From the NCBI GenBank assembly GCA_964016885.1, contig OZ024741.1, forward strand, positions 169,570,001 through 169,634,000: 64,000 bases of DNA. Direction: 5' to 3'. Shown here piece after piece: positions 50,771-63,254 of the stretch; the first letter of the stretch is position 1, and each line of letters opens with the position of its first letter. Source of the DNA: Eledone cirrhosa. Lineage: Eukaryota. The notes under the pieces were generated by a model. That model was given only the letters and a program-made list of their open reading frames with translations, did not search any database and was not told where the DNA came from. The position numbers and the translations under genes were made by a program.

Positions 50771-51364
50771 TTGTTTCTGAATTTGTTTAGCAAGATTCTT
50801 TATCTGAAATCGTGTGTTGAAACCGATATTGTTATACTTTGGGAGGGTCATGTTGCCAATAAGAAACACACGCACCAGTTGCTTTCACTTCAATTTATTA
50901 TAATAAATTTATAATAAATTTATAAATTTATAAATTTCTGGTTGGTTGGTTGGTTCCACAACCAGATAGTTGTTTATATATTGTCATAGTTCTTTCGTCA
51001 CACACTCTGTGACCTCTTCAGTGACTGGGGATTCCTTTCTTTGTTTCTGTGCCTCTCCTTTGTTCTGTCCTACACCATTTTGTTTCTGTGTGTGTCACAC
51101 ACAGAAACAAAATGGTGTAGGACAGAACAAAGGAGAGGCACAGAAACAAAGAAAGGAATCCCCAGTCACTGAAGAGGTCACAGAGTGTGTGACGAAAGAA
51201 CTATGACAATATATAAACAACTATCTGGTTGTGGAACCAACCAACCAACCAGAAATTTATAAATTTATAAATTTATTATAAATTTATTATAATAAATTGA
51301 AGTGAAAGCAACTGGTGCGTGTGTTTCTTATTGGCAACATGACCCTCCCAAAGTATAACAATAT
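50771..51364. mobile_element. Fold-back PLE terminal fragment containing a perfect palindrome (50826-51364)
   Basis: 50771-51094 is homologous to about 63255-63577; 269-bp arms around a single T at 51095; flanked by (TA)n on both sides. Confidence 0.9.
51165..51207 (+). ncRNA. Minimal type I hammerhead ribozyme (mirror copy on - strand at 50983-51025)
   Basis: GTCA-CTGAAGA-G-GTCACA(gagtg)TGTGAC-GAAA-G(aa)CT-A-TGAC gives stem I GTCA/TGAC, intact core, stem II and a 2-bp stem III. Predicted cleavage 3' of 51203. Confidence 0.75.
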
Positions 51365-53459
51365 ATATATATATATATATATATATTTGTGCTTCAAAGC
51401 CTGAAATATCAAATCAAATACAATCACTTTAAAAAGCTTCAGGATGTTATTATTTTTAAGTCAAGATTTAAATTAAAATAAAAAAAAGACAATTTTCTAA
51501 TGATCTTCACTAATTTAATTCCTGTACGAAATTAAAAAAGCAAATTGTCCATGCTCAATTCATTTTAAGGCAAGTTGCTTTCTGGTTAAGGTACTGAATT
51601 TGATTCTTGAACAGGGCATTTCACGTTGCTTTCCTATGAAGTACAACCTTGTAAAATGCTAGCTAAACCTACATAGGTGTAAGCTGTAAATTTAATCTAA
51701 TTTATTTTATATGTTACATTTGCAGTTGTAATTTCTAAACCTTTTAAAAATTATTTTTATCATTTAATAAGTGATAAAGTTGGAGTGTCAATCAAAAATG
51801 TTTTTGAGATTGAATTTGTTCATTCTTTTTTTCCTGCACCAGTTATATATTAGGGTCAATTTTATTGACCAATCCCTTCATCTAAATTTCAAGCCTTGTG
51901 CCAATGTAAAAATAATGACTGTTATTAATATTGAAACTACAGTGGATGGCAGAATTGTTAGAGTATTGGAGAAAAATGCCTTGCAGTATTATTTGTTTTG
52001 GCTCTTTACATTCTGAGTTCAAATTCTACTTAGATCAACTTAGCTTGTTTCCTTCCAAAGTAAATAAAATAAAATACCAGTAATGTTCTGCGGTTGATTT
52101 TACTTGACAGCCGATCTACTGTACTTACATATAGTAGGCTAACATGGTTTAGTAAATCACAATTCCCCACACAACAGTATGGCTCCATTGACAGATGTAG
52201 TATCACATTGATTGGAGTACATTTTCAACTGAGAAACACCATATATTACTGTAAACACATACACACATACATGAACATCCTATTATTTACATATACTCAT
52301 TCTCTCTCCTTTTCTATCACCCTCACTTCTGTCTCCCTATCTTTCTCTCCCTCTAAAAAGAGATATCACAAAAAGATAAAACAGAAATAGATAGAATACC
52401 CAGGGGTTTAGCCCTGCGATGGACTCGTGTCCTGACCAGGGGAAGAGTTTTGTACTCTCAGTCTCTTCACATCATGAAACCGGGATACGCACTGGCCTAA
52501 TGAGTTTTCTGGCTTAAGACAGACTTTAGACTTAGACTTTAGACGTTGTGGTATTTAGTCAAATCTCCTTATATAGTCTTCATTTTCTAGTGAGGTCAAT
52601 TTTATTTCTTATTCTCCTTCCCCAGAGTCAATAAAATAAACTAGCAGTCAAGTACTAGCACCTCCAACCCATTAATCAACTCTATTTCGTCCTCAAAACT
52701 TGTGACCCTGTATCTATATTTGAACTCCATTATTTCATAGTGGCAATATCGGTAGAGGGTCGGACGCCATGCTTTGACGCATAGAGTTACGGCTCTTTAC
52801 AGTCTAAGTTCAAATCCCGCCGAGGGTAACTTTGCCTTTCATCCTTACGGGGTCGATAAAATAAAGTACCAGTAATGTACTGGGTAATTACTGGCCTTGT
52901 GCCAAAAGTCCAAAAGTAGAAACAATTATTTCATAGTGGCAGTATCGGTAGAGGGTCGGACACCATGCTTTGACGCATAAAGTTATGGCCCTTGCCATTC
53001 TGAGTTCAAATCCCGCTGAGGTTAACTTTGCCTTTCATCCTTACGGGATCGATAAAATAAAGTACCAGTAATGCACTGGGTAATTGGTGGCCTTGTGCCA
53101 AAAGTAGAAACAATTATTTCATAGTAATGGATATTTTAAAATAAATCATTTATTTTGGCTTTGATTTTAATCTTAAAACATTTGTTTTAATTCCATTTTT
53201 CATTTTCAACGATTTTTTTTGTTATCTTACAACAAAACAGAATCCTCCACACACAACCCAAAATATATTTCGTTTTTAATAAATAAAAAATAACTATAAT
53301 AAACATATTATTTTGATTTTATTTATTTATTTATATACTTATTCCAAGATAAGACACACTTCAATTTTAAAATAATCTTTTAAGTTATTGCTTGTGATTC
53401 AAACTTGTCTTCACTATATGCTCATTAAAAAATCGGTTGTATAAAAATCTGTTAACCAT

Positions 53460-55420
53460 GTCACAACAAAAAGCACCCAGTACTCACTGTAAAGTGGTCG
53501 TGTAGGTGTGTGTTACAACAAAAAGCACCCAGTACTCACTGTAAAGTGGTCTTGTAGGTGTCACAACAAACAGCACCCAGTACTCACTGTAAAGTGGTGT
53601 AGGTGTCACAACAAAAAGCACCCAGTACTCAGTGTAAAGTGGTCGTGTAGATGTCTTAACAAAAAGCACCCAGTACTCACTGTAAAGTGGTCGTGTAGGT
53701 GTCACAACAAACAGCACCCAGTCCACACTGTAAAGTGGTTGTGTAGGTGTCTCAACAAAAAGCACCCAGTACTCACTGTAAAGTGGTTGTGCAGGTGTCT
53801 TAACAAAAGCACCCAGTACTCACTGTAAAGTGGTCGTGTAGATGTCACGACAAAAAGCACCCAGTCCCCACTGTAAAGTGGTCGTGTAGGTGTCACAACA
53901 AAAAGCACCCAGTCCATACTGTAAAGTGGTTGTGTAGGTGTCACGACAAAAAGCACCCAGTCCACACTGTAAAGTGGTTGTGTAGGTGTCACGACAAAAA
54001 GTACCCAGTCCACACTGTAAGGTGGTCGTGTAGGTGTCAACAAAAAGCACCCAGTACTCACTGTAAAGTGGTCGTGTAGGTGTCACAACAAAAAGCACCC
54101 AGTACTCACTGTAAAGTGGTCGTGTAGGTGTGTGTTACAACAAAAAGCACCCAGTACTCACTGTAAAGTGGTCGTGTAGGTGTCACAACAAAAAGCACCC
54201 AGTACTCACTGTAAAGTGGTCTTGTAGGTGTCACAACAAACAGCACCCAGTACTCACTGTAAAGTGGTGTAGGTGTCACAACAAAAAGCACCCAGTACTC
54301 ACTGTAAAGTGGTCGTGTAGGTGTCACAACAAACAGCACCCAGTCCACACTGTAAAGTGGTTGTGTAGGTGTCTCAACAAAAAGCACCCAGTCCCCACTG
54401 TAAAGCGGTCGTGTAGGTGTCACAACAAAAAGCACCCAGTCCACACTGTAAAGTGGTTGTGTAGGTGTCTCAACAAAAAGCACCCAGTCCCCACTGTAAA
54501 GCAGTCGTGTAGGTGTCACAACAAACAGCATCCAGTCCCCACTGTAAAGTGGTTGTGCAGGTGTCTCAACAAAAAGCACCCAGTACTCACTGTAAAGTGG
54601 TCGTGTAAGTGTCACGACACAAAGTACCCAGTCCACACTGTAAAGTGGTGTAGGTGTCACAACAAAAAGCACCCAGTACTCACTGTAAAGTGGTCATGTA
54701 GGTGTCTCAACAAAAAGCACTCAGTCCACACTGTAAAGTGGTCGTGTAGATGTCAACAAAAAGCACCCAGTATTCACTGTAAAGTGGTCGTGTAAATGTC
54801 ACAACAAAAAGCCCCCAGTACTCACTGTAAAGTGGTCGTGTAGATGTCTTAACAAGAAGCACCCAGTACTCTCTGTAAAGTGGTCGCGTAGATGTCACAA
54901 CAAAAAGCACCCAGTACTCACTGTAAAGTGGTCGTGTAGGTGTCACAAGAAAAAGTACCCAGTCCACACTGTAAAGTGGTCGTGTAGATGTCACAACAAA
55001 AAGCACCCAGTATTCATTGTAAAGTGATCGTGTAGATGTCACAACAAAAAGTACCCAGTACTCACTGTAAAGTGGTCGTGTAGATGTCTTAACAAGAAGC
55101 ACCCAGTACTCTCTGTAAAGTGGTCGCGTAGATGTCACAACAAAAAGCACCCAGTACTCACTGTAAAGTGGTTGTGTAGGTGTTGCAACAAAAAGCACCT
55201 AGTCCACACTGTAAAGTGGTTGTGTAGGTGTCGCAACAAAAAGCACCCAGTACTCACTGTAAATGAGGTTGGCATTAGGAAGGGCATCCAGCTGCAGAAA
55301 CCAAGCCCAAATCAGTTCTGTATGAGCAAGACATGGTCACCTTACCTAGCATTGTCCACAACAGGACAACTCGTCTAACCCATGCTAGCGTGGAAAAATG
55401 GACGTAAAGCGGTGATGATG
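53460..55420 (+). repeat. 48-bp minisatellite (about 37-38 units) fused to a SINE/RTE-type 3' tail
   Basis: Unit gtcacaacaaaaagcacccagtactcactgtaaagtggtcgtgtaggt; runs into ...ggttggcattaggaagggcatccagc...catgctagcgtggaaaaatggacgt(gat)n. Confidence 0.95.
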
Positions 55421-55869
55421 ATTACTTCTGTGTACAATACACCCCCTATGTGTTTCAGTTTAATTCTTTACTCCTATCCAATATTAACCACATCAGTCTC
55501 AGAGGGACTATGAATGTCATAGTACGGCCTCTTCCTCTAGACCAGACAATTTAAAGAAGAAAAAATGCGGTTTGTGAGTTGGTGTATGGAATTGTCATCT
55601 AGAAGCCTAGAGCTTCATGCAATTTTTTTCCAAGGCTTCACACGTTTTTCAATTATCAGTGAAGTAAATTAAAACATGTCTACAGGCAATCACTAGATGT
55701 GTATTTTAGATTAACCCTTTAGCCATATCTGACCAGAATTCTCTCACTACTTTCTGTTCAAAATATTAATCACAATTTTTTTTTTAGGTCAAGAAACAGA
55801 ATTATTTATTTCGTCGTCAAATATTTGATTTAAAACGTGTTCAAATCTTTGATTCATTCGTGAAAATCA

Positions 55870-62544: not shown

Positions 62545-62854
62545 TATATATATATATATATATATATATATATATATATATATATATATATATACACACA
62601 CACATATATATATATATATATATATATATATATATATATACACACACACACACACACACACACACACACACATATATATATATATATATATATATACATA
62701 TATATATATATATATATATATATATATATATATATATATATATATATATATACATATATATATATATATATATATATACATATATATATATATATATATA
62801 TATATATATATATATATATATATATATATATATATATATATATATATATATATA
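62545..62854. repeat. Compound (TA)n/(CA)n microsatellite; many others throughout the window
   Basis: Directly visible. Confidence 0.97.
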
Positions 62855-63142
62855 CAGTATTTACGTATCGAGAGAGAGAAAAAAAAGGGGAAGATAGGTG
62901 ATACATATAGTTATTTGCCAAGTAGCGTATGCCAAAGGTGCTCGATACTAGTGCCGGCAGTATTAAATATTCGAAGTGTTAATATTTAGTGGGCTAGAGA
63001 GTTAGCAGAGCCTAAGCACGTGGGAAAGTAAGAAATCGGAGAATAGAGCGTTAAAACATGTTTATTTAAAACAGCACCTACGTACGTTTCGCCCAGTTGG
63101 GCTTCTCAAGGGCATAAATAATCAAAAGTTTTGATTTTTTAT

Positions 63143-63182
63143 GCCCTTGAGAAGCCCAACTGGGCGAAACGTACGTAGGTGG
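63143..63182 (+). ncRNA. Minimal type I hammerhead variant with U3-A8 core (mirror copy on - strand at about 63074-63113)
   Basis: GCCC-TTGAGAA-GCCCA(ac)TGGGC-GAAA-CGTACG-T-A-GG. The core has U3/A8 in place of C3/G8; loop III is palindromic (ACGTACGT); stem I is short. Confidence 0.6.
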
Positions 63183-63254
63183 TGTTTTAAATAAACATGT
63201 TTTAACGGTCTATTCTCCGATTTCTTACTTTCCCACGTATATATATATATATAT

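Follow-up and report, generated by a model that had tools for sequence, protein, structure and literature searches.

The three hairpins of the window (the whole 64,000-nucleotide stretch of Eledone cirrhosa DNA analysed here, to whose first letter all positions refer) are very probably 5′-truncated, head-to-head insertions of three Penelope-like element (PLE) families in (TA)n, each likely formed when both nicked target strands primed at two different internal RNA sites. The element class is already known and the value of this result is mechanistic: the origin of PLE inverted ends and tails is called unsolved in PMC8557442, and the idea in print is self-priming (PMC3846280). The counts given below favour two primings and yield predictions that can be tested in the in vitro system already established; family B is a good candidate for the enzyme, since intact 775-aa ORFs are numerous in it and copies nearly identical. 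Annotators could take hairpins this short for MITEs or miRNA precursors; they should be entered as PLE ends.

The inverted repeats noticed in the preliminary description are real, self-alignment having confirmed the complementarity of units A and C and the nested arms of unit B, and BLAST comparison of the window's units gave no match among A, B and C, in keeping with the description's remark that they share no obvious primary sequence. Unit A (50826-51364) has 269-bp arms, 100% complementary around a 1-nt centre: a tailed arm on the minus strand (50826-51094), extended by a 53-nt tail found only on this side (50773-50825, minus strand), and a tail-less arm on the plus strand (51096-51364), which ends in (TA)n (51361-51386); another (TA)n tract lies to the left (50725-50771). 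Unit B (62162-62512) follows a (TA)n tract at 62113-62164 and consists of outer arms, about 122 bp long and mismatched at 3 positions, that enclose a nested inner hairpin. Its tail-less arm (62162-62310, minus strand) reaches about position -195 of the element and has a 46-nt deletion, and its tailed arm (62317-62512, plus strand) begins at -195, the inferred transcription start, and continues into a 32-nt tail (62513-62544, plus strand). Beyond a (TA)n/(CA)n tract (62545-62854) lies unit C (63018-63238, self-complementarity 96.8%), with a 163-nt tail (62855-63017, minus strand), a tailed arm (63018-63127, minus strand) and a tail-less arm (63129-63238, plus strand) that ends in (TA)8. Every unit thus carries one unpaired, one-sided tail, and since these tails had been missed the units are larger than first described; with the tails counted as part of the unit, (TA)n flanks each of them at both ends, as the description had said of abutment in general. 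One repeat had also been taken for the terminal repeat of a PLE at 63255-64000. Unit A does match 63258-63576 (91%), but the supposed element is only a solo, tailed, 5′-truncated 3′ end of family A of about 730 nt (63258-63986, minus strand), with about the last 92 ORF codons and a damaged hammerhead core (CUGAAUA).

Judged by sequence, the three units are the terminal repeats (pLTRs) of three abundant protein-coding PLE families. Full-length ORFs of 868 aa (A), 775 aa (B) and 927 aa (C) occur at other loci of the genome, not inside the three units, each directly upstream of sequence matching the window's arm, so that B and C now join A in being linked to PLE RT/GIY-YIG ORFs. In Pfam, the 775-aa B protein matches RVT_1 (E 2.4e-6, just under the curated cut-off) and GIY-YIG (E 3.4e-6), and the 868-aa A protein aligns to B over the RT (E 1e-9) and the endonuclease (E 2e-9); the same Pfam search gave no match for the full-length A and C proteins, nor for partial C proteins. 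Relatives of B have the same domains as B, and PF26215 and PF28514 are common to relatives of C and of B. The linker before GIY-YIG in A and B is CX4CxxC, which fits the CX2-5CxxC of the Neptune and Nematis clades, and by this motif, which fits both clades alike, A and B have a Neptune-type linker. Family C, read by motif in the protein of locus L187, combines Hydra-clade motifs (RWK, DKT, a CxCX5C linker, CxxC, CxH) with (TA)n insertion. Its ORF is seemingly single, and B has an overlapping upstream ORF in a different frame. The pLTRs are built by partial tandems, the tail being the sequence that follows the upstream pLTR (L165, L169 and L171 in B, L187 and L190 in C, L232 in A). Tandem B matches on contig C25 were also considered as tandem PLEs and rejected, being a segmental array of flanking DNA. 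That several PLE lineages target (TA)n, as had been proposed, is borne out by three separate families with a TA run within 30 nt of most terminal ends (158/163 in A, 132/149 in B, 73/75 in C); an exact pattern search found at least 12,045 exact tail-less ends of A in the genome and at least 2,655 of B.

The hammerheads require more qualification than their first description, which placed a minimal type I motif in each repeat. A strict type I scan of the whole window gave three matches (51169+, 51021- and 62361+), compared with one match in 2.55 Mb over 40 shuffles, or 0.025 per 64 kb. These correspond to the motif of A at 51165-51207 on the plus strand (GUCA, CUGAAGA, a bulged G and 6-bp helix II, GAAA, GAAC, UA, UGAC), its counterpart at about 50983-51025 on the minus strand, and that of B at 62356-62394 on the plus strand, with a palindromic helix III (AGUACU). 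Unit B has the motif on one arm only, because the 46-nt deletion of the other arm spans it. The core of C is UUGAGAA and not CUGANGA, a U3-A8 variant already described in metazoan PLEs (PMC4209133); picked up only by a relaxed scan, it lies at 63143-63182 on the plus strand, with a palindromic helix III (ACGUACGU) and a short helix I, and again on the minus strand of the tailed arm. No hammerhead family was among the 150 Rfam matches listed of 171, the top ones being miRNA models below threshold. The core pattern reads as intact in 66/83 A arms, 118/137 B arms and 76/96 C arms. In the predicted fold of the A and C hairpins, however, every motif is paired with its antisense copy, leaving the hammerhead helices a probability of 0, and the ‘self-cleaving dsRNA’ once suggested is thus improbable for these two units. 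The idea that hammerhead cleavage would set the 5′ ends was examined in short B ends: 4/24 fall no more than 4 nt from the cleavage site (p 0.05), and 3/44 (p 0.48) under a stricter alignment in which arms are split at indels. The hammerheads are likely passengers of the pLTR.

The strongest regularity concerns the tail. Exactly one arm is tailed in 112 of 117 inverted pairs (p 2e-27 against 50:50), the five exceptions being three pairs tail-less on both arms and two tailed on both. Samples picked by the tail-less end alone agree: the inverted partner is tailed for 33 of 69 B ends and tail-less for two, and for 30 A ends the figures are 13, plus 3 partners of tail only, against one. In the 112 one-tailed pairs the tailed arm is the longer in 29 and the tail-less arm in 24, where arm length is that of one alignment piece per arm and a few of the 24 (L012, L250, L162, L167) are affected by breaks or tandem copies; the 59 others are within 30 nt and, with such near-equal arms, do not discriminate between models. 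The tail-less arm may be far longer (73 versus 2992 nt at L166, 46 versus 2954 at L226, 82 versus 1489 at L235), and some inverted partners consist of tail alone (L305, L312, L314, L073). Insertions of this inverted layout range in size from about 55 bp to 7 kb, full-length copies with ORFs included, and their arms differ by 2.0-2.4% on average. Some pairs have different subfamily alleles on their two arms, which in B account for 39/135 differences against a null of 8%; the excess in A is weak (50/233 against 15%, p 0.009), about a third of it from the single complex locus L230, and for the window's own C arms an origin from two templates found no support at a 3-locus threshold.

Family B has, in addition, a fixed end. 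Of its anchor arms 34/69, and of their partners 30/41, end between -199 and -183, 37 of them at exactly -195, and a TATA box stands 31 nt upstream of -195 in 51/55 longer B copies. Position -195 is therefore likely to be the 5′ end of the family B transcript, at least as far as these sequence signals indicate, and this would account for the fixed-size B hairpins. Seven B copies have an upstream pLTR, two of which start at -195/-191, two downstream, and three reach beyond. Arm-end positions form no sharp end in family C and a weak cluster only in family A (7/33 at -280 to -250, p 0.013).

From the family identity, full-length ORFs, one-sided tails, TA flanks, locus-specific junctions and graded sizes of the hairpins, we infer the following course. 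The GIY-YIG endonuclease would nick both strands of the self-complementary TA tract, one 3′ end would prime at the tail end of the RNA and the other at the pLTR end, and the two cDNAs would stop or run off the RNA 5′ end before their 3′ ends are joined by microhomology or short templated patches. For most short B units, priming would occur in the transcript's upstream pLTR and copying would run off the fixed 5′ end at -195. Five of the six presumed priming sites have 3-6 nt of TA-like sequence, but the tail-less end of C has almost none, which counts against two primings. Among the mostly open-access papers listed by our literature search there was no printed twin-priming model for PLEs; a precedent in vitro is an anole PLE, for which both target strands are nicked and extended and synthesis begins at two internal sites bounding the tail (PMC11167929). 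A broader reading, which we hold with as much doubt as belief, is that PLE integration is obligately two-primer, with one tailed and one tail-less RNA start site, sometimes on two RNA molecules. In family B, cDNAs primed within the first ~250 bases of the capped transcript would then be ‘strong-stop’ products, running off at the transcription start; their head-to-head joining would mass-produce hairpins of fixed size, making up about half of the sampled tail-less ends and of the order of a thousand genome-wide. On the same reading B would be an endonuclease-bearing PLE with two ORFs that a -1 frameshift at U UUU UUA connects.

The preliminary description favoured snap-back, close to the self-priming hypothesis already proposed in print (PMC3846280), where the 3′ end of one cDNA or antisense template folds back on the molecule and primes a second copy that stops at the pLTR end. 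Palindromic centres that are perfect or nearly so, A being an example, would suit it, and so would the single haplotype shared by both arms in most pairs, which are identical over the compared region in 6/51 A, 14/45 B and 2/16 C pairs. However, a copied arm is limited to the content of the first one, so that snap-back can yield neither the 24 longer tail-less arms, with their excess of up to ~3 kb, nor partners holding tail alone; several subfamily-site differences between arms, as at L167, and the one-tail rule also contradict it. As a general mechanism snap-back is largely refuted and we consider it unlikely, though some symmetric units may still arise by it.

Two primings at the target also fit better than the suggestion that the hairpin-plus-ribozyme units are non-autonomous, retrozyme-like elements transcribed and re-inserted whole, which we regard as improbable. 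Short units are very common (32/69 sampled B ends are in one), a pLTR by itself can be mobilised in trans (PMC3846280), and four A junction sequences recur, each at 2-3 loci. Yet the recurrent A junctions lie in a TG run and came from a query selecting for them, two of the four groups being on different subfamily backgrounds, and junctions are otherwise distinct, in 38/38 B, 10/10 C and 43/49 A of the sampled loci; with such locus-specific junctions, the hairpin seems not to move as a unit. Unit lengths run continuously up to full-length copies, B units start downstream of the TATA box, and the A and C hammerheads are predicted to be sequestered. That the palindromes, the perfect A unit above all, are assembly or chimeric-read artefacts is the least probable explanation. 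The A arms are identical and the window's junctions are known from the assembly, but a one-sided tail with fixed ends recurs at more than 100 loci, arms on average differ, B and C are asymmetric, and TA tracts at both ends give way to unique sequence.

Two primings at one target are familiar from L1, where each of two nicks in the target starts a cDNA and microhomology joins the pair into an inversion; the L1 cDNAs derive from different stretches of a single RNA, whereas here the two overlap almost fully and give a palindrome. Non-LTR retrozymes (bioRxiv 10.64898/2026.07.22.740005) are, like the present units, non-coding, PLE-related and equipped with type I hammerheads, but a retrozyme repeats its unit directly in tandem, each unit with a hammerhead in the same sense, and ours are inverted pairs with opposite-sense motifs that at the sampled loci show no copying as whole units. 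Three short direct repeats do occur at locus L270; they start at the cleavage site and are without the hammerhead core. With the minimal hammerheads of metazoan PLEs (PMC4209133) the units share type I motifs in the pLTR, a bulged base before helix II, a short palindromic helix III and the U3-A8 variant, as well as pairs on opposite strands 100-700 bp apart, ascribed there to truncated PLEs; against what that source describes of them nothing substantial differs, A, B and C being new sequence families.

Each of the four traits, inverted pLTR, tail, hammerhead and TA target, is already on record for PLEs, and an inverted 5′-truncated copy with an optional tail is the canonical endonuclease-bearing Penelope-like insertion (PMC8557442; Pen2a_Av in PMC3846280; PMC2377424). 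Three points set the present families apart from the insertions described there: tails longer than the usual 30-40 nt in A (53 nt) and C (163 nt), a one-tail rule backed by counts, and a 5′ end fixed to a single base in family B. Family C shares RWK, DKT, the CxCX5C linker, CxxC, CxH, hammerhead and (TA)n insertion with the Hydra clade of PMC8557442 but, owing to linker inserts, is longer than its typical element (a 3.3-kb unit and 927 aa, against under 3 kb). The closest parallel in vitro is PAc, the Poseidon of Anolis carolinensis (PMC11167929), in which both strands are nicked and extended at an AT-rich target, two internal start sites bound the tail and hammerhead cleavage is not required for insertion; that work saw no strand difference in its start site and no resemblance of the site to the target, whereas here the two ends of an insertion almost always use different sites, most of which are TA-like.

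The three inverted repeats of the preliminary description are present in the assembly sequence at 50826-51364 (unit A), 62162-62512 (unit B) and 63018-63238 (unit C), and BLAST finds no similarity between them, in line with the unrelatedness it had claimed. The arms of A are 269 bp long and perfect, C is 96.8% self-complementary, and B consists of outer arms of about 122 bp with an inner hairpin nested within. In each, one of the two arms is separated from the TA tract by an unpaired piece, of 53 nt in A, 32 nt in B and 163 nt in C; since it matches the sequence following the upstream terminal repeat (pLTR) in tandem copies, it is the 'tail' of a Penelope-like element (PLE). 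Kinship with the PLE end beside C holds for unit A, by a 91% BLAST match to 63258-63576. A hammerhead had been seen in every unit: a strict scan of the whole window finds three motifs, all within A and B, at a chance level of 0.025 per 64 kb (40 shuffles), whilst in C, and in the copy at 63.5 kb, one is detected with a relaxed core only. The core of C is the U3-A8 variant, which is the usual form in family C (intact in 76 of 96 arms) and is reported for PLEs in PMC4209133. A 46-nt deletion in the left arm of B, at a TGA microhomology (62283), removes the hammerhead; sampled locus L024 has the same deletion, in a unit that differs from B at the fold, and one-arm deletions taking out all or part of this region are also found in the family B units at L033, L042 and L098. 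B, C and A units are stacked in a row in one TA tract at 62.1-64.0 kb, as is frequent elsewhere (L001, L002, L014, L016, L116), which implies repeated use of the same target. The window also holds a remnant of a family A pLTR end, 25-30 nt long and flanked by TA runs (32513-32537), and long tandem arrays of 22-nt (48856-50153) and 48-nt (53459-55263) units.

All three sequences are high-copy repeats, with 1197, 1146 and 683 candidates in the 3.0-Gb assembly, 40 of each being scored. Tail-less ends that match exactly and continue into TA occur 12,045 times in A and 2,655 times in B, and the reversed controls give 0 matches. Walking inward from the arms reaches coding sequence in A, B and C alike, and protein searches confirm the supposed tie to PLE ORFs in all three families, with full-length ORFs of 868 aa (A), 775 aa (B) and 927 aa (C). 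The B protein matches Pfam RVT_1 and GIY-YIG, that of A is alignable to B's reverse transcriptase (RT) and endonuclease, and both have the CX4CxxC linker (Neptune/Nematis); the C protein has the RWK, DKT, CxCX5C, CxxC and CxH motifs, the set of the Hydra clade, and the named protein relatives are molluscan. The C protein exceeds most relatives by about 200 aa, owing to long stretches, Asn-rich and basic, that are inserted between the RT and the endonuclease (L187:2779-5559); Asn-rich inserts are known from rotifer PLEs (PMC3846280). Family B has an upstream ORF of 476 codons from stop to stop (L169:1112-2539), for which Pfam gives no real match and which, in the -1 frame, overlaps the ORF for RT and endonuclease (L169:2449-4773), likewise at L160, L161 and L165; in 22 of 23 copies the overlap contains the heptamer U UUU UUA, with no strong hairpin downstream.

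Among the loci initially fetched were 120 head-to-head pairs, of which 117, with at least 80% element sequence, were kept; they range from 177 bp to more than 7 kb and include pairs with full-length ORFs. Exactly one arm bears a tail in 112 of the 117, neither in three and both in two. The family A set was picked with a tail-bearing query, and those of B and C were not; the rule was checked on ends sampled in genome order by the tail-less terminus only. Of 70 such B ends one was dropped as the same insertion, and among the 69 others the partner is inverted and tailed in 33, inverted and tail-less in two and truncated in six, whilst 13 are of a length that prevents resolution and 15 are solo. 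For 30 A ends a script gave 13 inverted tailed, one inverted tail-less, one truncated, five long and 10 solo, although three of these solo ends do have an inverted partner, 5-25 nt long and consisting of tail only. Very short family A insertions, in which an inverted tail end is joined to a pLTR end, occur at L312, L314, L305 and L073:3795-3850, three of them of about 40-55 bp.

The preliminary description attributed these units to snap-back, by which the second arm should copy part of the first. Near-equal arms are found in 59 pairs and a tailed arm longer by at least 30 nt in 29, but in 24 it is the tail-less arm that is longer by this margin, and even though a few of these are due to alignment breaks or tandems, the difference is clear, at 1.4-2.9 kb, in L166, L226, L235, L139, L142 and L243. 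Moreover, tail-only partners have no sequence in common with the opposite arm, so that snap-back is not supported; self-priming on an antisense template, the alternative printed in PMC3846280, shares its failed prediction on arm content. On the other hand, each strand of a unit, read 5′ to 3′, opens with antisense element sequence adjoining TA, one with the tail end and one with the pLTR end, as expected if two first-strand cDNAs had been primed at opposite nicks. (TA)n being self-complementary, both strands would offer the same primer, and five of six start sites have a few TA-like bases. Twin priming is known from L1; for PLEs no printed model of it came up among the papers listed in searches of mainly open-access literature. 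In an anole PLE, both strands are nicked and extended, and two start sites bound the tail (PMC11167929).

The arms of a pair are mostly of one haplotype, with a mean difference of 2.0-2.4%. Differences involving two alleles, each present at three or more other loci, nevertheless amount to 39 of 135 in B, 50 of 233 in A and 4 of 39 in C, above simulated nulls of 8%, 15% and 1%, which suggests that two templates were used in a minority of pairs; hypermutable sites or gene conversion may also lie behind them.

Short hairpins are common in family B, with 32 of the 69 ends located in one. Anchor arms in this unselected sample end at -199 to -183 from the pLTR end in 34 of 69 cases (16 exactly at -195), as do 30 of their 41 partners (21 exactly at -195), and 51 of 55 longer copies have a TATA box whose first base lies 31 nt before -195, kinship making these effectively one observation. 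Penelope transcripts begin within the upstream pLTR (PMC2377424), and we place the probable transcription start of family B at -195; the short units would be run-off products of priming close to the RNA 5′ end. The seven B copies with a pLTR before the coding region start at -195/-191 (two), downstream (two) or further upstream (three). Ends cluster weakly in A (7 of 33, p 0.013), and no cluster appears in the sampled ends of C. The turning-point cluster of A (about -265) adjoins motifs at L199:5720-5790 and window 51096-51120, which resemble ETS, NRF1 and YY1 sites and may mark a TATA-less start.

Spread as whole, retrozyme-like units, also proposed earlier, is not supported by the junctions of simple pairs: all 38 in B and all 10 in C are distinct, as are 43 of 49 in A. 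The A junctions that recur fall within a TG run and stem from a set chosen for this length; of their four groups, two are spread over different subfamilies. Hairpin units do not occur as arrays among the loci examined. Predicted whole-unit folds give the hammerhead helices probability 0 in A and C; in B, helix II has a probability of 0.86-0.97 and helix I, at 0.22-0.32, is partial; two-copy co-folds are predicted to have an intermolecular helix III for the B and C motifs, and the lowest-energy fold of the A motif is without it. At L270 (G000:C18:20117817-20118364) family C positions -60 to +64 are directly repeated three times, each repeat starting at the predicted hammerhead cleavage site. 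A further TA-tract repeat family, which has short fold-backs and hammerhead-like words of its own, lies beside sampled loci (L035, L036, L100, L073:2000-2170) and is absent from the window by three probes.

In conclusion, units A, B and C are real, and they are PLE ends of an already known element type, in new families; the new class of hammerhead fold-back elements first proposed is not supported. The value of this work, a modest one, is in the counts bearing on mechanism and in the fixed 5′ end of family B. Recently active Penelope families are listed for an octopus in PMC13282606, in whose accessible text hammerheads are unmentioned, and hammerhead pairs on opposite strands, 100-700 bp apart, are described in PMC4209133. 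Retrozymes are direct tandems (bioRxiv 10.64898/2026.07.22.740005), whereas the window units are inverted pairs, and it is with the PLEs described in PMC8557442 that they share the inverted truncated copy, the tail, the TA bias and the hammerhead.
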